Shown: positions 43,665 through 57,867, counted from the first letter of the stretch. The stretch: 64,000 bases of DNA from a virus (IMGVR_UViG_3300030329_003230:23401-87400); one strand, 5' to 3'. Notes: generated from the sequence alone by a model not told the origin. Made by a program: numbers and translations.

Positions 43665-45236
43665 TCACCCCATTAAAGCGGCATGAGTAATAATAGTGCA
43701 GCCATTCGTTTTTAATCCTCTTGGCATTACAGTTGCCTCAACAGTTACTGGCCCTTTATCCTCAGGGATAGTCCAATTAGCAGCATTTGTAAAATAATTT
43801 TCAAATTCTAATTTAATTTGCTCACCATTTGATTTATCAAATTGTAAAGTGATATCATATGTTGTTTCTTCATCTGAACGAATAAATTCTCTAAATAATT
43901 TATCGTCTGTCACTAATGCTGTAAATGATAATTCATATGTTCTTTGAGCAGGTATTCCTTGTTTAATCCCTCTATCTTGCATTCCTACAAATCTTTTATC
44001 TTGTATATTATTATTGATAGTTAAAGTAAGATTAGTTATTTTTAATAATTGTTGATTATAGATAGTAATTGTTCCATCAGTAAAGAAGAAAGGCTCAAGA
44101 TGTCCTGATTGAGCACCCTTTCTATTAGAAAAGTTTTCAACTTCTTGATTTCTACGTGCATACATCTCTTCATCAATATCTAATTCAGTAACTGCTGAAG
44201 TGTTTAAATCCATAGTCATTTTAACTTCTTCATTTTCATTAGCAGTTAATGTTAGAGTATTAATTCTATTACCCCTCGCTACCCTGACAAAAGTATGACT
44301 TTCTGTTGCCGCTGAATCAATATCAGTTTTGTAAGTATTAGTGCTCTCTAATTTAGAAATAGATTGTTCTAAAGCAAAAGAAGGGAGTTTAGCCGTATCT
44401 TGTTCATTGATAATATAGGTAATAAAATTACTTTCAAAATTACTTACGGATAATGCAGACAAAGAAATTAATTGACCTACTGTTGTATCCGTTGGCATTA
44501 AAGGAGGAACTATTTCTGTTCCTATTGTTCTGTAAAAGATTGGCCCATCTTCAATATGTGCAGTATCATTATGTAAGAAAGTTGCTTGGTCTGCTGACGC
44601 CACATCAAAGGGAGCAGAAAAACCACTTGAAGTAGCGGCTGAACGAATACCCGCAGGAACCGTTGTTGTGCTACATTTACCTAAAGCATAGTAAAGCCAA
44701 TGTCCTTGATTGGCAATTAAATTAATATTCCCACCAGAAGCAGTTTCAATCCCTTTGAACTGATGAGTAAAGTTTCTTGTGCCACCAAGAGCCAAATTTA
44801 ACTGCCTCATTTCTACATCTATATTAGGAAAAGTTGCACTCTCTACTAAACCTAAAGAATTATCAGCGTTTAAAGTCGCTATACTAGTATCTTGAGCAGG
44901 TGCAGGGCAAGGTGCTGCATATCCTCTAATAACATAATAGTCATTAGTAGCAGTTGATTTTGCTACAGGAGTAAAAGTTATTGTTGCAGCAGCAGTACTA
45001 TTACCTGAATTACCAGTGATAGTGTGAGTTGATTCTAATACATCAGAATTATTATATCTATCAATAGTGCAGCCAACATATAAATCCTTAATTAAACGGA
45101 AATGAGTTTGGTCGGCATGAAAGGTAATTGTTGATTCATTACCACTAACTGCTGTCTTTTGAACATAAAAATCAACTTCAGGAACAAAACTTAGTGTTGC
45201 TCCGCTTCCTAAAAATATTTCTTCGTTTTTTGCCAT
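43665..45236 (-). CDS. Major tail tube protein
   Basis: ASGGNINL...WLYYALG, LPSFALE, PFFFTDG, TLTINNN...R.YELSF; position before the chaperone. Confidence 0.75.
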   Translation of the reverse strand: MAKNEEIFLGSGATLSFVPEVDFYVQKTAVSGNESTITFHADQTHFRLIKDLYVGCTIDRYNNSDVLESTHTITGNSGNSTAAATITFTPVAKSTATNDYYVIRGYAAPCPAPAQDTSIATLNADNSLGLVESATFPNIDVEMRQLNLALGGTRNFTHQFKGIETASGGNINLIANQGHWLYYALGKCSTTTVPAGIRSAATSSGFSAPFDVASADQATFLHNDTAHIEDGPIFYRTIGTEIVPPLMPTDTTVGQLISLSALSVSNFESNFITYIINEQDTAKLPSFALEQSISKLESTNTYKTDIDSAATESHTFVRVARGNRINTLTLTANENEEVKMTMDLNTSAVTELDIDEEMYARRNQEVENFSNRKGAQSGHLEPFFFTDGTITIYNQQLLKITNLTLTINNNIQDKRFVGMQDRGIKQGIPAQRTYELSFTALVTDDKLFREFIRSDEETTYDITLQFDKSNGEQIKLEFENYFTNAANWTIPEDKGPVTVEATVMPRGLKTNGCTIITHAALMG

Positions 45237-47154: not shown

Positions 47155-48213
47155 CTAATTCTCCGAACCTTCTGGAATATTATTTACTGCTCTTTCTAGT
47201 TTGTTTAATTTACCTCTAATGAATTTGAAATAATTACTCAACTGAAGGTTAGCAGTTTCTTCTGGTTTAACTTCTAAAAGATTTTTAGGGTCAACTTCTT
47301 CCCCCTCAAGGAAAACTCTACCTTTAAATTCTGATAAATTTATAACTTTAATAGACACTTTATCTACAGTTTCTCTAAAAGTAACTATAAATTCTAATTT
47401 TATATCATATATATGACGTGGATTAATTGGGAATCTTATATCTTCTAATATTAGCTGTTTATTATCGAATATAAAATCCTTAATTATTTTAGGGGATTCT
47501 CCAACATAATCATACAATACTGATATTCCGCCTTTCTTTCGACCAGATAACATATTTTTTAGGTTCTTATCTTTAAATTCTAAATCATCAGTATCTATAC
47601 TTACATTGATTTTTTCATTTATATTAAGGCCTGAAGAAACAGTTTCTTCTATACCTTGTATTGTTTCCCCTTTCAAATTTTTAATTTTTAAATTTTTATC
47701 AGAAAACTCTAACTTTAGTGAAAAACTATTCTTATCAGACTTAGTTTCAGTGATGTATTTTTTAAAAATATTCTTAATAAAATCATCATCAGATAATGTT
47801 TCAAGTATTGAAATTTCAGAAGTTTCTGTTTCTTTCTTTGCTTTATCAGAAGAAACGTCCTCTATTTTGAAATTAACATCTAACTCTTCGATTTTTAACA
47901 TTTCTTTTGTTTTATTATCTATGTAAATGTCTGAGTCTTCAATCTCTTGTCTTAATTTTGAAGCTCTTAATTTATCTAATGTTTGTTCACTTAAGTTTTT
48001 TAGATAGTCTTCATGCTCTTTAGTATAATTAAGAGCCATTTCTTCATCCATTTCTTCTAAAAACTGAACCATCCATTCAAATTCTCTTGGTCCTCTTGGG
48101 TATTTTAATACATATTTTTTAAAACTGGGTAATAATACCTCTGTTAAATCTGTATTTTTTAATCTACCAGCATCGTTAAACCAAGGAAAATCCATACTAA
48201 TCAAGCCAACCAT
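47155..48213 (-). CDS. Hypothetical charged protein
   Basis: Long ORF in the late operon. Confidence 0.55.
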   Translation of the reverse strand: MVGLISMDFPWFNDAGRLKNTDLTEVLLPSFKKYVLKYPRGPREFEWMVQFLEEMDEEMALNYTKEHEDYLKNLSEQTLDKLRASKLRQEIEDSDIYIDNKTKEMLKIEELDVNFKIEDVSSDKAKKETETSEISILETLSDDDFIKNIFKKYITETKSDKNSFSLKLEFSDKNLKIKNLKGETIQGIEETVSSGLNINEKINVSIDTDDLEFKDKNLKNMLSGRKKGGISVLYDYVGESPKIIKDFIFDNKQLILEDIRFPINPRHIYDIKLEFIVTFRETVDKVSIKVINLSEFKGRVFLEGEEVDPKNLLEVKPEETANLQLSNYFKFIRGKLNKLERAVNNIPEGSEN

Positions 48214-48944
48214 TTAGCCCAAGCAGCGCCCTTGGAAATCATTTTACTTAATCCTAATCCGCTATTTGGTGGGCTATAGGTCGCTTGACCAGTAGCAGGG
48301 TCAATCCAATATGGATTATTGTAATTATCATAACCCGCTGGAGGAACAGGATATCCTGATTGATTATTAAATGCCTGTTGTTGATTCATCATTTGTTGAT
48401 TCATTCCACCTTGAGGGGGAGCACCTTGAATGGGCATACCATTTGGACCAACTCCTGCGCCCTGCATTCCCATTGCTGCTCCACCAACCATAGCTCCACC
48501 AGCCGCCGCAGCCGCTCCTGCCATTTGTGGATTAGCACCATCACCAAAACCTTGAGCCTCTAAATATTGACTCTTAGCCATCTGTCTTTGATAGACAACT
48601 TCAGAGTTAACAGAAGCAGTCAAAATTTTCTGTATATCTAATTCTATATTTTCTTCTGTAATTTGTTGGTATTTGGTTAAACAAGTCTTTTCTAAAGTTA
48701 TATCTCCTTGAGTTGGTTCTAATTTAAAATGTAAATCAGCAAGCATTGCACTCACTACTCTTTGTACTACATCTTCTAATAATTTCTCAAATGTAGTCAA
48801 AAAAGCTTCACCATGATAAAGTAAAAATTCTTCAACATGATTATCTTGTAAAGTCAAAAGATTATTCATTGCTTTGAAATTACTCTGATTATTATTCTGC
48901 ATCTGTGTCGCTAATGCGCCATTACTTGTTCCGAAAAGTCCCAT
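48201..48944 (-). CDS. Low-complexity Q/G/P/M-rich protein of the GTPase operon
   Basis: MGLFG N-terminus, helical core, GYPVPPAGYD...PYW, amphipathic C-terminus. Confidence 0.65.
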   Translation of the reverse strand: MGLFGTSNGALATQMQNNNQSNFKAMNNLLTLQDNHVEEFLLYHGEAFLTTFEKLLEDVVQRVVSAMLADLHFKLEPTQGDITLEKTCLTKYQQITEENIELDIQKILTASVNSEVVYQRQMAKSQYLEAQGFGDGANPQMAGAAAAAGGAMVGGAAMGMQGAGVGPNGMPIQGAPPQGGMNQQMMNQQQAFNNQSGYPVPPAGYDNYNNPYWIDPATGQATYSPPNSGLGLSKMISKGAAWAKWLA

Positions 48945-48946
48945 AT

Positions 48947-49585
48947 TTATTCACCTACTAATTCATCTATTTGTCCTATTTTACCCTTGAGCTCTGTTAA
49001 TAATATGAATAGTTTTTCCTCGGCAGTCGTAGTATCAGCGCTTGGGGGCGTTATCTCCCAACCTTTAGAGGTTAATGAAATTATATCTTTTTCACTCAAT
49101 GTTACTAAAGGTCCACTTCTCATCATACTAGGAACTCTTGGTTTAGGTATGTATTTTTTAAATTCTAAACCATGTTTTTCAGCAATAACTTGTTGCTCTA
49201 ACATTTCCATTTGTTTGAATAAAGAAGAGTGCCTTGGGCAATAAGTCCCTCTCAGCGGCCTACCTTTATTAACGTGAGATAAAGGAATAGGGGGCCTTAG
49301 ATTATCGCCGGGTTCCCAAACATGATGAACTCCACAAACAACGCATCTATCTCTAATGTTAAATCTAAATCCATATTTCTTGAATAAGAACTTCTTTTTC
49401 TCAGGAAGTAACACTTTCTTGAGTTCTTTCATTTGTTTTTTAACATCAAGCGATTTGAACTCATAAACAAAAATAGGGCCAGCGAGCCGAGCGTTATGGC
49501 TTACTCTAGCAGAATTAATCATTTTATCCATAGAACTATCGTTCATACCTATAATATTAGGTGTAAATACCATTTGTTGCGTCAT
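48947..49585 (-). CDS. Zn-binding protein of the GTPase operon
   Basis: CVVCGVHH...YCPRH, C-terminal helix. Confidence 0.6.
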   Translation of the reverse strand: MTQQMVFTPNIIGMNDSSMDKMINSARVSHNARLAGPIFVYEFKSLDVKKQMKELKKVLLPEKKKFLFKKYGFRFNIRDRCVVCGVHHVWEPGDNLRPPIPLSHVNKGRPLRGTYCPRHSSLFKQMEMLEQQVIAEKHGLEFKKYIPKPRVPSMMRSGPLVTLSEKDIISLTSKGWEITPPSADTTTAEEKLFILLTELKGKIGQIDELVGE

Positions 49586-49586
49586 A

Positions 49587-50264
49587 TTAATACTCCTTAA
49601 CCATTGTCATTATTCCTCTGTAGACCATTTCGGGGTCCGACTTGGCAGATACGATGTATTTGAAACAAGGTATCCCTTTATCCTGTAAACGTTGCATACC
49701 GAGCCTGAATGGTTCAAAGATGGGGTGTTTATCGATGGACCCGTCGAATTCATAATTATCTTTCCATAAATCGTACTTATTAGCCCATATGCCTACGGCT
49801 ATTGGGAAGTCCTTTTCCTTCTTCTTTTTAGATTTATTCTTATTTAATCTCCAATACTCATCACAAATTGTATCGACCATAAATTGCCACCCTAATTGAT
49901 TCTCCAAATTATATGCTTCTCTTAAGTGCCTATCATCAATCATGAATATGATATATTTGACATGTCTATTACGCATATCTTTTTGCCAAGCATCCCAATA
50001 GTAAGACTGCCCCCCTACATCTGCGGTTTTTATTGTTCTAGAATCTTTATCTATTTTCACTACTTTTCTAGTGGTTCTGTTTAGCCCAACTGTTCTTTCA
50101 GCAATATTAGGTACTTCCCCTCTTGTTCTTAGTTGATGATGTAATGTTGTTTTTCCAACTTTAGAAGCACCATATACTCCAAAATTTAATGCGTGTAATC
50201 TTTGATATAATTTAGCGGCGGCTTCTGCTAAAAGAATAGAAAAGCCTGTTAATAAAGTAGCCAT
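49587..50264 (-). CDS. Arf/Sar-like small GTPase
   Basis: G1 GASKVGKT, G2 RTVG, G3 DVGGQ, IIFMIDD, G4 ANKYD, G5 SAK; hydrophobic/amphipathic N-terminal helix. Confidence 0.88.
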   Translation of the reverse strand: MATLLTGFSILLAEAAAKLYQRLHALNFGVYGASKVGKTTLHHQLRTRGEVPNIAERTVGLNRTTRKVVKIDKDSRTIKTADVGGQSYYWDAWQKDMRNRHVKYIIFMIDDRHLREAYNLENQLGWQFMVDTICDEYWRLNKNKSKKKKEKDFPIAVGIWANKYDLWKDNYEFDGSIDKHPIFEPFRLGMQRLQDKGIPCFKYIVSAKSDPEMVYRGIMTMVKEY

Positions 50265-50495
50265 TTAACCCCATCCGAATAGCCCCTTAACCCTATCAAC
50301 AAACATACCTAAGAAATCAATTCCATTAGCACCCATTATATTTCCTATAATGAAAAAAGCAGTAGAAGCAAGAACACCCCAAAGTAATGCTCTTATTTTA
50401 ATGAAAAAAACATCAGCAGAGTGGGCTCTTGATAAGTCGTAAGCTAGAGATTGCTCATCTACGCCTAATAATCGGTCTAACATTTTTATCACCAA
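50265..50495 (-). CDS. Small membrane protein
   Basis: ALLWGVLASTAFFIIGNIMG TM segment plus an amphipathic tail. Confidence 0.65.
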   Translation of the reverse strand: MVIKMLDRLLGVDEQSLAYDLSRAHSADVFFIKIRALLWGVLASTAFFIIGNIMGANGIDFLGMFVDRVKGLFGWG

Positions 50496-50505
50496 TCATG
50501 AATTA

Positions 50506-50892
50506 TCATTCCATTGCCTTTAGAAATTGTTCAGAGACTTCATCATAAGGTCCACCATCCCCTGAAGCCCTATAATAATTTAAATTTCTAGAATTCATCG
50601 TTTCACGAATCTTTTGCCTCTGAGAATCATCTCTATTTCTTTTCTGCCAATATAATTCTATTTTTCTATTCAATAACCACGTCTCTAATCTTTCGTTTAC
50701 CGCTAAATCGAATAGAGCTTTTTGTAGCATAATTACACCTACCGTAACTAACGCAAATAGTATAGCGTGAGATATCGGTGGGAAAGGTAACGCTGCTCCA
50801 TATACCGAGTAGAAGTAAACATTCAGTCCAGAAACTGCTCCTACATACATTATCGTCATTATCAGTCTTGTGTCTTTATCTATTGCTGCCAT
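50506..50892 (-). CDS. Two-TM membrane protein (holin-like topology)
   Basis: TM1 LIMTIMYVGAVSGLNVYF, TM2 AILFALVTVGVIML, charged C-terminus. Confidence 0.65.
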   Translation of the reverse strand: MAAIDKDTRLIMTIMYVGAVSGLNVYFYSVYGAALPFPPISHAILFALVTVGVIMLQKALFDLAVNERLETWLLNRKIELYWQKRNRDDSQRQKIRETMNSRNLNYYRASGDGGPYDEVSEQFLKAME

Positions 50893-50915: not shown

Positions 50916-51233
50916 TTAATTAAATTCAACAGTAAAGGTTGTTCCTGTTCCGCTAACATCTGTTACGTCTGCGAATAATCCAGTAGTGAATCTTACTCCA
51001 TGCATATCTGCTTCGTTATACGAGTCTCCTTCAGAAGCTAAACCAACATATAACATACCTAACATGTTAGCATCACTACATGCTCCTTGAGTTAAACAAT
51101 CATGAATAGTTACATATCCGGTGTCCGTTCCAGTTGCATAACCGTGAATACTGATTAATTTCCCACCACCAGTATAAATGAGAGTATCAGCACTAATTGC
51201 ACCACTACTTCTACATCCACCTATACCCGACAT
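50916..51233 (-). CDS. Small virion protein, paralog B
   Basis: MSGIGGCRSSG...EADMHGVRF; tandem paralog of 51254-51586. Confidence 0.65.
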   Translation of the reverse strand: MSGIGGCRSSGAISADTLIYTGGGKLISIHGYATGTDTGYVTIHDCLTQGACSDANMLGMLYVGLASEGDSYNEADMHGVRFTTGLFADVTDVSGTGTTFTVEFN

Positions 51234-51253
51234 ATTCTCTCCTCCTTTCAATA

Positions 51254-51586
51254 TTAATTAAATGTCACTAAAAATTTAGTTGCAGTGCCTGCCACATGGG
51301 TAACTTCCGCAAATATACCATTTTTGAACGTGACACCATGCATATCTGCTTCAACAAAATTACCAGCCGTCGCTGTGGTTCCAACATATAATACTCCAAT
51401 AGTATTAGCAGCATTTGCAGCACCAGCAGTTAAACAGTCATGTAAAACAACATATGCTGAATTATCAACTGGTCCACCAGTAACAAAAGACATACCAGTA
51501 ATACTGATTAATTTGCCAGAACCAGTGAATAGTAATGAATCACCCGAAAAGGCTCCAGTACTTCTACAGCCTCCTATACCAGTCAT
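51254..51586 (-). CDS. Small virion protein, paralog A
   Basis: MTGIGGCRSTG...EADMHGVTF. Confidence 0.65.
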   Translation of the reverse strand: MTGIGGCRSTGAFSGDSLLFTGSGKLISITGMSFVTGGPVDNSAYVVLHDCLTAGAANAANTIGVLYVGTTATAGNFVEADMHGVTFKNGIFAEVTHVAGTATKFLVTFN

Positions 51587-52656: not shown

Positions 52657-54033
52657 TCAGAAAAGGTTAGTAATCTTGCCTTGTCCCTTGAAGAAGGTAC
52701 ATCCAGTCTCACCCATTGTTCGGTAAAGTCCTCGGTTTCCGAGTACTCCAACACCGAATGGATTTCCGTGGCTGATACCGTCCTCGAAATACTGAGTTGG
52801 TTTTAGCGTAGCGAACCAAAGGTGGTCAGTGTCAAGCAGAAGAATGTCAGAAATCTTCGTACCTGTGTAAGCACCAGTTGTTGGCATATCTTTAGCTGGA
52901 ATTAGAGGGATATCGTAGTATGTTGCAACACGGAATCCAACTTCTGCACCTTTTACACCTTTTACACCGTTATGGCTAGGCATTACTTCTTTAGAGTCCA
53001 TGAATCTCTCTTGGCTCTGAAGTAGGTCAGAAATTGCCTGAATTGTGTCGTATCCTGTAAGCATAACTTTAGGAGCTCCACCGTTCAATCGCACATTCTG
53101 AATGACTGTGTTCATGATGCTTAGGGTGAATTGTCGGCCAGCAGTTGCATAGCTTCCACCAAAGTTTACTTCAGCATCCAAGTAAGATGCAGCACTTCGG
53201 GTTGCGCCGTAAATGATTTTTGCATCATCGTCAGTGGTTGCGTAGTTGGTTGTTCCACCAATGTTGGAAAGGTTGTGAATACCAACAGTGTCTGCCAATT
53301 CTCCGAAAGAGCTGCAAATCTTCATCAAAGATGTGTATTGTTCACGGATTCTTCCATTTGTTACGGAAACATCAGCACCGAAGTCATCGTACATTTCTAA
53401 TGGCATGACGAGCATCTTCGATTGAGATTCAGCGTGGAATTTACCCATATCTTCACGGATAAGTTTCCTAAGGTCGCCTACTCCATCGTCAATCTTTGCC
53501 ATTTCAGCAGCTAATTCGCTGTAATCGAACATATGTGCAACGATTTTCGGATTCATGTATAGGTTAGCATATTCTGGAGCCATTGCAAGAAGAGATGATG
53601 AACCGAGAGCCTCGTTTTCACCAACTCCACCAATGATATCTGCATCAGGTGCAGCAGTTCCTTGAGCGGCAGTTCCAGCAGTTGTGGAAATTCCGAATGC
53701 AGCAGCGCTTCCACCCTGCGGCCTGTTCGTCATTACTCTCCATCCACTTGCTGTGTATGGCCTCTTTGGTAGAATTGAAAGTGGGTTGATTTCTTGGTTA
53801 ATCATTGACCAAACTTTCTGTCCGTAAATAACGTTGTAAAGGTTTGCAGCACCAGTTGTTGCTGTACCGTTAAGGTTAATTGCGTCACCAGAGGAACCGG
53901 GGAAACCGCTTCCAATAGAACCGACAACTCCAGCAGCCTTCAATAGATTGTTTCCTGCCAATCCACCAAAGCTACCGTAAGTTGCGGCTTCCAAATCTTT
54001 CATTGTGTTAATGTACTTTGTCATCTTTTTCAT
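52657..54033 (-). CDS. Major capsid protein (HK97 fold)
   Basis: Follows the protease/scaffold; distinct highly-expressed codon usage; YGQKVW...LPK...GWR, PKIVAH, YDIPLIP, LDTDHL, TMGE...F..QGKI. Confidence 0.85.
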   Translation of the reverse strand: MKKMTKYINTMKDLEAATYGSFGGLAGNNLLKAAGVVGSIGSGFPGSSGDAINLNGTATTGAANLYNVIYGQKVWSMINQEINPLSILPKRPYTASGWRVMTNRPQGGSAAAFGISTTAGTAAQGTAAPDADIIGGVGENEALGSSSLLAMAPEYANLYMNPKIVAHMFDYSELAAEMAKIDDGVGDLRKLIREDMGKFHAESQSKMLVMPLEMYDDFGADVSVTNGRIREQYTSLMKICSSFGELADTVGIHNLSNIGGTTNYATTDDDAKIIYGATRSAASYLDAEVNFGGSYATAGRQFTLSIMNTVIQNVRLNGGAPKVMLTGYDTIQAISDLLQSQERFMDSKEVMPSHNGVKGVKGAEVGFRVATYYDIPLIPAKDMPTTGAYTGTKISDILLLDTDHLWFATLKPTQYFEDGISHGNPFGVGVLGNRGLYRTMGETGCTFFKGQGKITNLF

Positions 54034-55383: not shown

Positions 55384-57867
55384 TTAATTGTTCCTGAATT
55401 TTAATTTAGAAAACTTATCTTTACTAATATCCCAAACCCCTTCATCAGTATCAGAGTCAACAGGTTCAGTTTCTAAACCAGTCCAAGCTAACCAAATATC
55501 TTCACCGTCAACGGGAATAACCCTAACATGAAATTTAGTATCAAATTTATTTCCTTCTAACATATATTCATGATAACCGTCTCTTTGAACTCCTAATTCT
55601 ACTTTACCGGAATCAACTAATTTGCCCTTTCCATATTTGTCTTCCACTTGAGCAGGGAATTTACCTGATTTACCAAAAAGAGAAAATATATCTTCATCAT
55701 CTTCTATATCTATTTCCCATCCAAATAATTTATCACTCACTTTGAAAAAGATACATAGGTTATCATTATCCTTTCTATAAATTTTAAATTCTCCTTTTCT
55801 ATATTCATCAGGAGTTTTGTAATCTTTCTCTATCATATCATCAGCAGCAGAAAACACTCCTTCTTGTTCATCATAAGTTATATCTTCTAGTTGTTTCATC
55901 CAATCTTTTAATTTTTTACTATCAGACTCAAAAAGATTACTAAAATAATTCATATGTTTTTCTCTTACAAAATCTTCTATTTTATCAAAAGAAACTCTAC
56001 CAGTTTCCATTAAGAAATTTTTAACAGCCAGTCTGAACTTTGCTTTTTGTGTTTTCAACATATCTTCTATCTGAGTTTTCCAAACATCAATATCTAGTAT
56101 AGCATTTTTAGACATCAAATTATTTTCTTCAAACCCATAAAACGTAAACCCATCTAAATCTGATTTAATTATGGCAGTGGCTTCACCGTGTATAATATCT
56201 GAAATTTTATATCCTTTCTCTAAAGCTTCTACATTATAGTTAAGAGATTTCTTAGTATCTTGAGATAATAATTCAAGAGTGATGAGTTTTTCAGGTAATT
56301 CAACTTCAGGTATCTCAATAGGTTTAGCAGAGAATAACTTGTAGCCTCCGTTTTTATCTTTCTTTACTTCATCTATTTTAACTCGGATAATAGTACCTAC
56401 ATCAACATCTATTTTTGTATTCAGGGCTTTACCTACTTCCAAATATTTCCTATCATTAATCATTTTAGTATTTTTAAAATCATCATTATCCGATAATGGC
56501 CCAGCACCTAAAGTATAAGTGAACATATTAGATTTAGTAGTCTTTTTATCTAATACCATCATATCTAAATCAACGAATTTCTTCCACTTAATCCATTTAG
56601 GGTTCTTCTTAGTTCCAACAAAATAAGTAGATGTTAGGTCTTTTATTACTACCCCCTCAGCAGTTGGTATTTGCATAATTTCTTCTGAATATTCTTCTAC
56701 TTCCTTAATAGAATCAGCATAACGTGTATCTTTTTTAGAAGGGAAAGCTAGTTTCTCATCTGAATGAGTAGAATAATTATTGAAAAGTATAGTTAACCTT
56801 TCAGATAATTCTTCTTCATGTAACTCTCTATCTTCATGCCTCATAATATCGAATACATGTACTCTTAATTCTGAATCTTCCGCTTCCTTTCCTTTGAATA
56901 TTCTGGCCACAACTTCTGCTCTATGTAATGGTTCTTCCTTTTGGAAAAGCATTAATTCTGCATCAAGGATACAATCCCCAAAGTGTTTAGCAGCCATTAT
57001 TTTCTTTTGTTCTGGACATTTATCGGTGATGTCTTTACCATTGAATGAATAAATCTTAATTTGTTCATCTATCTTATGAATCTGAATTCTCATTCCATCA
57101 TATTTTTCTTGAACAACCCATTTTCCTGTAAATCCCTTTAATTCTTTCAAATCATCTATCTCAAAAATCCTATACATTGGTTTGTTAGGTATTAAAAAAT
57201 GAATATCAGATTTCTGAGCTTTTTCTAAACTAACCGTTTTATTCCATTTAGATTTCCCATGATGAGACACAAATATATCTTCTAATAATTTAGCAGCAGC
57301 CTTGTATTTACCTTTAATTCTCTTAGTATCTTTACCATCCCCATAGTGTTCTACAATAAAATCAATGACATCTTTTTTAGATAAATTAAGACCTTTATAT
57401 CCTTCAGTAATATTATCTGGTTCTAAATCATTTTTTTCCCAAGCGCCGTCACTTAACGATTTATCATGATTTCTTATAGCCCAATGAATAAATTTAGCAA
57501 ATAAAGAGGGATTAGACATTAATTGGTCTAATACTTCTTCTCCGTATTTAATACTGAAAGGGTCTTTAACAATTCCAGAGGAGTACCTTAATTCTTTAAC
57601 TTGAGAATAAATATCCCTTGCAATGTCTGTTTCTACATTTTCAGCTTCGTCAGAAAATAAATTATCTTCATTAATTACTTTTTTAATTTCTTTACTGAAA
57701 TCATCTATGTCATCCCACTGTTCACGTAATATTTTAATCTCACTTATCCATTTCTTGCCATATTGTTTAGGGTCTGATAAAGCAGAAAGATATGACATTC
57801 GCATTTTTTCAAAAAATTGAATGACCCTTAGAGTTATTGGGGTATCTTTCGTAATAGAAACAGGCAC
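55384..57867 (-). CDS. Second ATP-dependent DNA ligase in the head module, with N-terminal extension and a LigD-phosphoesterase-like C-terminal domain
   Basis: QEKYDGMR, ILDAEL, FDIM, EGVVIK, WIKWK; C-terminal DSGKVELG...HEYMLEGNKF...W. Confidence 0.85.
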   Translation of the reverse strand: MPVSITKDTPITLRVIQFFEKMRMSYLSALSDPKQYGKKWISEIKILREQWDDIDDFSKEIKKVINEDNLFSDEAENVETDIARDIYSQVKELRYSSGIVKDPFSIKYGEEVLDQLMSNPSLFAKFIHWAIRNHDKSLSDGAWEKNDLEPDNITEGYKGLNLSKKDVIDFIVEHYGDGKDTKRIKGKYKAAAKLLEDIFVSHHGKSKWNKTVSLEKAQKSDIHFLIPNKPMYRIFEIDDLKELKGFTGKWVVQEKYDGMRIQIHKIDEQIKIYSFNGKDITDKCPEQKKIMAAKHFGDCILDAELMLFQKEEPLHRAEVVARIFKGKEAEDSELRVHVFDIMRHEDRELHEEELSERLTILFNNYSTHSDEKLAFPSKKDTRYADSIKEVEEYSEEIMQIPTAEGVVIKDLTSTYFVGTKKNPKWIKWKKFVDLDMMVLDKKTTKSNMFTYTLGAGPLSDNDDFKNTKMINDRKYLEVGKALNTKIDVDVGTIIRVKIDEVKKDKNGGYKLFSAKPIEIPEVELPEKLITLELLSQDTKKSLNYNVEALEKGYKISDIIHGEATAIIKSDLDGFTFYGFEENNLMSKNAILDIDVWKTQIEDMLKTQKAKFRLAVKNFLMETGRVSFDKIEDFVREKHMNYFSNLFESDSKKLKDWMKQLEDITYDEQEGVFSAADDMIEKDYKTPDEYRKGEFKIYRKDNDNLCIFFKVSDKLFGWEIDIEDDEDIFSLFGKSGKFPAQVEDKYGKGKLVDSGKVELGVQRDGYHEYMLEGNKFDTKFHVRVIPVDGEDIWLAWTGLETEPVDSDTDEGVWDISKDKFSKLKFRNN

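Follow-up and report, generated by a model that had tools for sequence, protein, structure and literature searches.

A Conserved Five-Gene Block

The stretch IMGVR_UViG_3300030329_003230:23401-87400, referred to here as the window (64,000 nucleotides, nt), is the right-hand part of a virus record of 87,400 bases with a CheckV completeness of 100%. Five minus-strand open reading frames (ORFs) in its late arm occupy positions 48201 to 50892, exactly where a preliminary description made from the sequence alone had placed them. Read along the minus strand, they encode a protein with two transmembrane segments (2-TM protein, 128 amino acids (aa); 50506..50892), a protein with one such segment (1-TM protein, 76 aa from a TTG start; 50265..50495), an Arf-like small GTPase (225 aa; 49587..50264), a protein with conserved cysteines and histidines (Cys/His protein, 212 aa; 48947..49585), and a protein rich in Gln, Gly and Pro (Gln-rich protein, 247 aa; 48201..48944). 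The gaps inside the block are 10, 0, 1 and 2 nt, in agreement with the 0–10 nt first reported; the block begins 23 nt after the preceding gene and its last ORF overlaps the next gene by 13 nt. Since the flanking late-arm genes are equally close-packed, spacing alone cannot delimit the five genes, and it is their conservation that does so.

Clade 1 comprises 44 close IMG/VR loci whose GTPases are 59–95% identical to that of the window. Searched with a two-clade alignment, IMG/VR gave at least 536 confirmed viral stretches, 80 of which were kept as clade 2, with GTPases 27–34% identical to the window protein. By tblastn, the order capsid, 2-TM, 1-TM, GTPase, Cys/His and Gln-rich is found in every clade-1 locus that reaches far enough. 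Position-specific hidden Markov models (HMMs) recover all five genes, in the same order and within 5 kb, in 30/30 clade-1 and 78/78 clade-2 loci with room for them; as these profiles were built from ORFs of the same loci and searched against all their ORFs, the counts describe constancy of arrangement and not independent detection. Gene by gene, presence in loci with room is 44/44 and 78/78 (clades 1 and 2) for the 2-TM protein, 44/44 and 80/80 for the 1-TM protein, 33/34 and 80/80 for the Cys/His protein, and 30/30 and 80/80 for the Gln-rich protein. The five genes are thus syntenic in related viruses, as the preliminary description required for its proposal.

Profile comparison between the clades with hhalign scored the GTPases at 100% (E 1.5e-43), the Cys/His proteins at 97.9% (E 4.9e-13, 86 columns) and the Gln-rich proteins at 75% (E 2.4e-5, 100 columns of the N-terminal domain), while the best of 19 cross-position control pairs reached 19.5% (E 1.2e-3, 12 columns) and the others E >= 0.035. 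By these profiles the Cys/His proteins are homologous across the clades, and the Gln-rich proteins probably so. Among window ORFs of at least 70 aa, only the GTPase (80/80) and the chaperonin (9/80) have tblastn matches at E <= 1e-4 in the clade-2 loci, which reach only about 8 kb either side of the GTPase; the chaperonins of the two clades share only 22–30% identity. Median ratios of nonsynonymous to synonymous substitution rates (dN/dS) against clade-1 relatives are 0.11 for the 2-TM protein, 0.18 for the 1-TM protein, 0.12 for both the GTPase and the Cys/His protein, and 0.21 for the Gln-rich protein, with dS near saturation (1.3–2.0) in these estimates. All five genes are under purifying selection. 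No RNA sequencing run carrying the sequence was listed, and three RNA runs from its sample contained almost none of the words.

The Small GTPase

The five nucleotide-binding motifs (G1–G5) reported for the GTPase are intact and lie in invariant columns. Across 36 aligned clade-1 homologues, the unchanging residues are G32, G37, K38, T39 and T40 of G1 (the P-loop G32-x4-G37-K38-T39-T40; 50145..50171), T58, D82, G84 and G85 of G3 (D82-V-G-G85-Q86; 50007..50021), N162, K163 and D165 of G4 (N162-K163-x-D165; 49770..49781), and S206, A207 and K208 of G5 (49641..49649), all on the minus strand. The pattern GxxxxGK[ST] is present in 30/30 unique clade-1 and 70/70 unique clade-2 sequences, and the G4 pattern NKxD in 30/30 and 68/70. 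With G1, a switch-I Thr, G3, G4, G5 and a Pfam Ras match above cut-off, the protein has the features of a Ras-superfamily small GTPase. The residue that follows DxGG is the catalytic Gln of Ras and Arf. The window protein has Q86 at this position, which is variable in the family: Q in 18 and E in 12 of the 30 unique clade-1 sequences, and Q in 32, E in 15, D in 9 and H in 3 of the 59 clade-2 sequences (of 70) in which the pattern was found.

The AlphaFold2 model (mean predicted local distance difference test, pLDDT, 69.3; predicted template modelling score, pTM, 0.72) places a helix at residues 2–23 (50196..50261, minus strand; DSSP on the model) ahead of a Ras-like core. G7, F8 and E14 are invariant within this helix, which has a mean hydrophobicity of 0.68 (Fauchere-Pliska scale) and a hydrophobic moment of 0.34. 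A polybasic loop lies between G3 and G4 at residues 142–151 (49812..49841, minus strand), and in the 12-residue stretch richest in K/R the median number of these residues is 7 for clade 1 and 6 for clade 2. Both the hydrophobic helix and the polybasic loop occur in both clades and would fit peripheral membrane binding.

In Pfam, the GTPase matches Ras (25.0 bits, cut-off 21.6) and MMR_HSR1 (22.3, cut-off 21.9) above threshold and two further families below it, one of them Roc (24.4, cut-off 27), with all four matches confined to the G1–G3 half; NCBIfam yields only a generic small_GTP domain, also below cut-off. Structural comparison points more specifically to Arf. Foldseek matched the model solely to small GTPases and G-alpha proteins, and the top 25 rows from VIA-align are Arf-family entries (Arl6, Arf6, Arl2, Arf1, Arl1 and Arl3; Z 15.2–13.9, root-mean-square deviation 2.7–5.6), where rows within 1 Z unit are counted as tied and the chain identity of three Arf rows was read from the entry title. 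The best of these superpose over about 160 residues with deviations of 2.7–3.3, and sequence identity to the Arf family is only 14–21%. G-alpha, an entry for the beta subunit of the signal recognition particle receptor (SR-beta), LokiRagO and Sar1 follow at Z 13.8–13.4, and Ras, Rab and Rho are all absent from the 50 rows listed, making the Arf family the closest fold among small GTPases by VIA-align on the predicted model.

Sequence searches of the PDB lean the same way. The single sequence found Arl8A first (5.8e-4). A broad 30-member profile, which includes distant non-viral members, found the Asgard protein GerdArfR1 (8oun_A) first at 7.6e-15, then Arl3, Arf1 and Arl1, and its matches are nearly all Arf/Arl. 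A virus-only profile also ranked 8oun_A first (7.5e-7), in an alignment that extends through the N-terminal helix, followed by Arl8 at about 1e-4 and Ras/Rab33 at about 3e-4. Pfam Arf was matched (E <= 0.01) by 15/30 members of the broad set, more than any other family, and SRPRB by 6/30. The Arf-type flavour noted from the motifs is therefore borne out by fold, PDB profiles and Pfam counts. On this evidence the GTPase is read as Arf-like, yet not as an Arf-family member by curated threshold, in a family that does not conserve the catalytic Gln.

Distribution of the GTPase Family

A word-indexed search returned 352 GTPase homologues at E <= 1e-3; the best 120 of these are 59–94% identical, 193–236 aa long and all from marine metagenomes. 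The automatic JGI label 'GTPase SAR1 family protein' is already attached to a few homologues. Against 1.84 billion representative proteins, the GTPase profile found 83 matches at E <= 1e-3, consisting of one close-family cluster, many fragments, a second set of 240–264-aa proteins and a handful of singletons; canonical Arf or Ras was not among the matches at this threshold. The distant relatives (P0157, P0171, P0177, P0179 and others) are metagenome singletons, with one Heimdallarchaeaceae 'Rab family GTPase', and were not found in IMG/VR. INPHARED phage records gave no tblastn match, and no fused form of the GTPase was found at E <= 0.001 among 699 candidates, which is weak evidence. These searches indicate that the GTPase forms a virus-only, very divergent family, to which a distant homologue in Poseidoniales host genomes may exist.

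When 185,579 prokaryotic species were scanned, each through a single genome, the gene turned up on 2 contigs, both from one metagenome-assembled genome (MAG), at 62–65% identity. These contigs (NZMJ01000101.1 and NZMJ01000024.1, 'MAG: Maricaulis sp.') hold two different magrovirus-type GTPase genes, 65% and 62% identical to that of the window, and are probably viral contigs misbinned into a bacterial MAG. Because only these 2 contigs were found among so many species, the gene is not a recent host insertion, an origin that the preliminary description, together with a grouping among soluble translation-type GTPases, had named as fatal to its proposal. The broader idea that a host GTPase landed as a recent moron among unrelated small ORFs, or that the five genes are chance neighbours, could draw on the 'SAR1' labels as a hint of cellular origin. 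It is contradicted by an order kept in 108/108 loci with room, in two clades whose GTPases are about 30% identical, by purifying selection on all five genes and by the species scan, and is excluded for practical purposes.

The same distribution bears on a possible role in host takeover, in which the viral GTPase would imitate a host small GTPase, for example one of division, shape or signalling, or compete with it, with the membrane proteins as anchors. Viruses of eukaryotes commonly target small GTPases or use them as tools, and a virus-only, divergent and strongly constrained family would suit such a role. However, no close cellular homologue was found that could be the object of mimicry, the 83 matches in 1.84 billion proteins being mostly fragments or viral-type, and placement in the late arm would be unusual for takeover genes. 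Host takeover is accordingly considered quite improbable, although far more probable than chance neighbourhood.

Partner Proteins

The topologies given for the two small membrane proteins hold throughout clade 1. The 2-TM protein has hydrophobic segments at about residues 10–28 and 43–61 and a charged tail, and two hydrophobic peaks are seen in 29/29 clade-1 sequences, with a C-terminal tail of median 68 aa containing 12 K/R and 12 D/E. The 1-TM protein has its hydrophobic segment at about residues 36–54, and a single peak is seen in 28/28 clade-1 sequences. The commonest N-terminus among relatives of the 1-TM protein begins at an inner Met, which suggests that the gene starts four codons further in, at the ATG at 50483, to give a product of 72 aa. 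In a scan of 77 non-overlapping ORFs, strong hydrophobic segments were confined, among late-arm products, to the 2-TM, 1-TM and tape-measure proteins; two further hydrophobic plus-strand ORFs in the late arm overlap minus-strand genes and are read as antisense artefacts.

The Cys/His protein, always encoded directly downstream of the GTPase, belongs to a family of 386 relatives, all unnamed. Residues C81, C84, C116 and H119 are present in 25/25 clade-1 sequences and H88 in 24/25. The corresponding pattern C81-x2-C84...H88...C116-x2-H119 (49229..49345, minus strand) makes a metal site plausible. In clade 2, the first Cys and a C-P-x-H knuckle are kept in 64/64 sequences, another residue takes the place of the second Cys, and an additional two His do not vary. 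The AlphaFold2 model of the protein has pLDDT 61.7 and pTM 0.44. No Pfam family was matched at E <= 1, and the ESM Atlas gave only matches of at most 0.82 to unnamed clusters. Two predictions of a complex between the GTPase, with GTP and Mg, and the Cys/His protein each scored 0.00, which speaks neither for nor against binding.

The Gln-rich protein combines a conserved N-terminal domain (about residues 28–133) with a low-complexity C-terminal half, and its termini are conserved, starting M-G-[LI]-[LF]-G and ending G-A-A-W-A-K-W-L-A. Pfam gave two unrelated weak rows only (DUF2884 at 0.11, DUF4897 at 0.57), and the ESM Atlas no usable match. None of the four partners is explained by a Pfam, NCBIfam or PHROG family, the 2-TM protein drawing just one PHROG row at 0.092.

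The 1-TM and Gln-rich proteins, otherwise unrelated, have in common a short hydrophobic motif after the initial Met (50483-50495 and 48930-48944 in the window; also in loci L045–L124). The 1-TM protein starts M-G-[RW]-[IL]-F or M-x-W-P-F, and the Gln-rich protein M-G-[LI]-[LF]-G, M-G-W-F-S or M-V-W-P-F, so that M-x-W-P-F is common to both in some clade-2 loci. The motif could be a common docking or processing signal.

Genomic Setting and Relocation of the Block

The plus-strand half of the window encodes a Cpn60/TCP-1 chaperonin, an ATP-dependent ligase, an RFC-like clamp loader, PolB pieces and a primase subunit, and the minus-strand half a portal protein, an S78 prohead protease, a second ligase, an SU10-type capsid protein, a tail-tube protein and a tape-measure-like protein. 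The second ligase (827 aa; 55384-57867, minus strand; ATP-dependent DNA ligase core PF01068, 2e-28) lies in the head module. In the available text of Philosof et al. (PMC5434244), a second ligase within the structural module is noted for magrovirus groups A and B, and the traits listed for magroviruses are a head-tail module, a near-complete archaeal-type replication module, the structural-module ligase and a chaperonin. The gene set of the window, including the embedded ligase, chaperonin, PolB, RFC and primase, matches that account, and the source genome is of magrovirus type (order Magrovirales), as had been assumed. Literature searches on magroviruses, archaeal viruses and viral GTPases found no description of the block, although supplementary gene tables may list the gene; the word 'GTPase' is absent from the main texts of PMC5434244, PMC11706807, PMC10160649, PMC8651126, PMC10768690 and PMC5332604.

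The block starts 1.8 kb downstream of the major capsid protein gene (52657-54033, minus strand; Pfam SU10_MCP 30.7 bits, PHROG major head 1.1e-25) and precedes the tail-tube gene (43665-45236, minus strand; Phage_tube_2, 5.4e-16). Of the earlier statement that it sits between capsid and neck genes, the upstream flank is correct; the downstream flank is the tail-tube gene, and neck genes as such were not identified. The statement also applies to this clade only, as the distant clade has the block upstream of the portal gene. In 4/4 clade-2 genomes (90–95% complete), the block and the portal match share a strand, with the block 10.5–14.5 kb upstream, and in the 3 of these with a whole capsid match it lies 20–23 kb upstream of the capsid. 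Its place relative to portal and capsid thus differs between the clades while its internal order is kept, indicating that the block moves as a unit.

This position would be compatible with a morphogenesis factor, such as a checkpoint or chaperone of head, neck or tail assembly or of DNA packaging, possibly tethered to the membrane. The block of this clade lies between capsid and tail-tube genes with almost no intergenic space, that of the other clade precedes the portal gene in the same arm, and conservation is strong (dN/dS 0.12). The shift relative to the head genes with internal order kept argues, however, against a role in a single assembly step, two or three integral membrane proteins would be unexpected in the assembly of a tailed virion, and no PHROG structural family was matched. 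A morphogenetic role is therefore regarded as rather improbable, though ahead of host takeover.

Directly upstream of the block are tandem paralogues of 111 and 110 aa (50916-51251 and 51254-51586) without family match, present in 1 or 2 copies in relatives, where the tblastn matches of both often coincide. Just downstream lies an acidic 352-aa gene (47155-48213) in a variable slot; it was matched in 6/44 clade-1 loci at 26–43% identity, and the ORF at this slot ranges from 217 to 861 aa.

Some variation is seen in and around the block in relatives. Clade 2 has a third small membrane protein after the Gln-rich gene in 80/80 loci, compared with 0/26 clade-1 loci with room; it is 74–100 aa long, with two hydrophobic peaks in 56/61 (for example L047:10378-10638). 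Insertions of about 550 nt occur between the GTPase and Cys/His genes in L030 and L032 and between the 1-TM gene and the GTPase in L014, so that the block tolerates inserted ORFs. Directly upstream of the 2-TM gene, an ORF or frame of 48–49 aa is present in five of seven clade-2 loci examined (L045, L047, L049, L052 and L073; the other two being L064 and L111), about 850–900 nt upstream of the GTPase (for example L047:7136-7282). Its N-terminal half is conserved, and the frame in L052 was called with a longer 67-aa start. Pfam found no family for this ORF, which we take to resemble a ribbon-helix-helix DNA-binding protein, and it may regulate the block.

Comparison with Known Systems

The viral GTPase shares with the Arf family, including GerdArfR1 (8OUN/8OUM), a Ras-like G1–G5 domain, D-x-G-G and a helix before the first strand. 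In the available text on GerdArfR1, a nucleotide-dependent interswitch toggle that releases the N-terminal helix is given as the defining Arf feature (10.1101/2024.02.28.582541). The viral GTPase differs in a 20-residue insert with the polybasic loop between G3 and G4, in a catalytic Gln that is not conserved, in a helix more hydrophobic than amphipathic and in a score below the PF00025 cut-off. The viral family is moreover virus-only, with four orphan partner genes. A likeness to SR-beta (6frk_v) and Gi-alpha (2ode_C) is also seen at Z 13.8, about 1.4 or less below the best Arf-family row. An N-terminal hydrophobic segment anchors SR-beta. The viral GTPase lacks, however, any SRP-receptor context and the helical insertion domain of G-alpha.

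A second relevant system is ArvABC of Haloferax volcanii. As described in the available part of its report (PMC10927574), the small GTPase ArvA drives vesicle formation and, like the viral GTPase, has an N-terminal helix and Arf as its best profile match among otherwise generic labels, and the arvA operon encodes ArvC, a Cys-containing Zn-ribbon protein whose deletion raises vesicle output and for which the authors propose a role as GTPase-activating protein (GAP); a membrane role is proven for ArvA itself. The viral block also encodes two or three integral membrane proteins plus one rich in Gln and Gly, and its partners match neither DUF2073 nor DUF2072. Directly downstream of the GTPase, at the position of ArvB, no DUF2073 is found. 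The place of ArvC, within two genes downstream, is taken by the Cys/His protein, of no known family, none of whose 42 family members matches DUF2072 at E <= 1. For the partners the likeness is one of gene logic.

This parallel raises the alternative that the block remodels membranes as ArvA does but without lysis, budding or shedding vesicles (for example as superinfection decoys, or for receptor removal or export) or building an internal membrane platform for replication or assembly. In favour are the order of an N-terminal-helix GTPase followed by a Cys/His protein, as in the available account of the arvA operon (PMC10927574), the Arf-like fold and the constant adjacency of membrane proteins. 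Against this, no homology to ArvB (DUF2073) or ArvC (DUF2072) was detectable, the virions are tailed and without membrane, and the block lies among late structural genes. Remodelling without lysis is judged a minority possibility, on a level with a morphogenetic role.

The holin lysis cassettes of tailed bacteriophages offer a third comparison, being compact blocks in or beside morphogenetic genes with small late proteins of one or two transmembrane segments and a charged C-terminal tail, the latter described as typical of holins in the available text of a review (PMC10791045). The 2-TM protein meets this description, which many membrane proteins fit. Known lysis cassettes, however, do not include a GTPase, a Cys/His protein or a low-complexity protein. 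Neither an endolysin nor a spanin gene, nor any hydrolase, was recognised next to the block, and no holin family was matched in Pfam or PHROG.

Proposed Function of the Block

The explanation preferred as a whole, at a probability of roughly 0.38, is a late membrane-acting, GTPase-switched module that times or executes egress. Its steps differ in strength. Best supported is that the five proteins work together, given their strict co-occurrence, fixed order and joint relocation. That the block is a membrane-associated GTPase-switched module has slightly better than even odds, the membrane as site of action being suggested by two or three integral membrane proteins, a hydrophobic helix and a polybasic loop. 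The weakest step is egress as the specific purpose, which is doubtful; it draws on the position in the late arm, on a 2-TM protein built like a holin and on the lack of another candidate. A 2024 review (PMC10791045) describes in its available text the main players of tailed archaeal virus egress as 'completely uncharacterized'.

Under this proposal, the five genes would constitute one late-expressed viral module acting at the host cytoplasmic membrane. The GTPase would be its switch, the GTP form being held on the inner membrane face by the N-terminal helix with the aid of the polybasic loop, where the 2-TM and 1-TM proteins would already reside. The Cys/His protein may regulate the GTPase or act as its effector, and a GAP-like role is suggested by its fixed place directly downstream, by the non-conserved catalytic residue of the GTPase and by analogy with zinc-finger ArfGAPs and ArvC. 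The Gln/Gly-rich protein could serve as a scaffold or linker, and the 2-TM protein, with its long charged tail, as a holin-like component. The purpose would most likely be to time or execute a breach of the membrane for progeny release from a murein-free host. The most explicit version of this proposal, a GTP-timed membrane-breaching egress machine in which a virus-only Arf-like switch and a Cys/His regulator trigger holin-like proteins, is less probable again than egress in general, although still ahead of each alternative discussed above.

A number of observations weigh against an Arf-like egress module. The Pfam Arf match of the GTPase (PF00025) stays below cut-off at 20.8 bits against 22.3, and a clade-1-only profile still has 8oun_A in first place, at 0.006, but tied with Rab33B. 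Of the N-terminal amphipathic helix described earlier, the helix stands as predicted by AlphaFold2, but amphipathicity was not demonstrated, about 25% of same-residue shuffles equalling its moment of 0.34 in both clades; hydrophobic and membrane-anchor-like is the safer label. The designation of the Cys/His protein as Zn-binding is likewise upheld in part: the Cys/His columns of the putative metal site are conserved, but 0/42 family members match any zinc-ribbon, ArfGap or DUF2072 model. Its predicted fold found nothing in the PDB with Foldseek at E <= 0.001 (the best being a rabphilin-3A entry at E 0.99), and no chain at Z >= 5 among 48,161 with VIA-align (best Z 4.1). None of the partners matches a holin, ArfGAP, ArvB or ArvC model in Pfam, NCBIfam or PHROG. 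Between the clades, hhalign scores only 6.9% for the 2-TM proteins (E 5e-3, 81 columns) and 4.3% for the 1-TM proteins (E 9e-3), and since their sequences are so weakly alike, their equivalence is one of position and topology. No enzyme that degrades an S-layer or envelope was recognised next to the block, and its position inside the morphogenetic arm is just as consistent with a part in assembly.

Significance

Magroviruses, whose hosts are abundant ocean archaea, are among the most abundant archaeal viruses of the surface ocean. From its gene content, the block is a candidate for how tailed archaeal viruses act on, or leave through, the host membrane, and it provides a concrete five-gene egress candidate, present in at least 536 viral contigs, that is testable by expression and biochemistry. 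Its GTPase would be a rare Arf-like small GTPase encoded by a prokaryotic virus, in a gene logic that echoes the ArvA vesiculation operon. If the block does prove to be an egress machine, prokaryotic viruses would have evolved a small-GTPase control of membrane rupture of their own, independent of eukaryotic trafficking.

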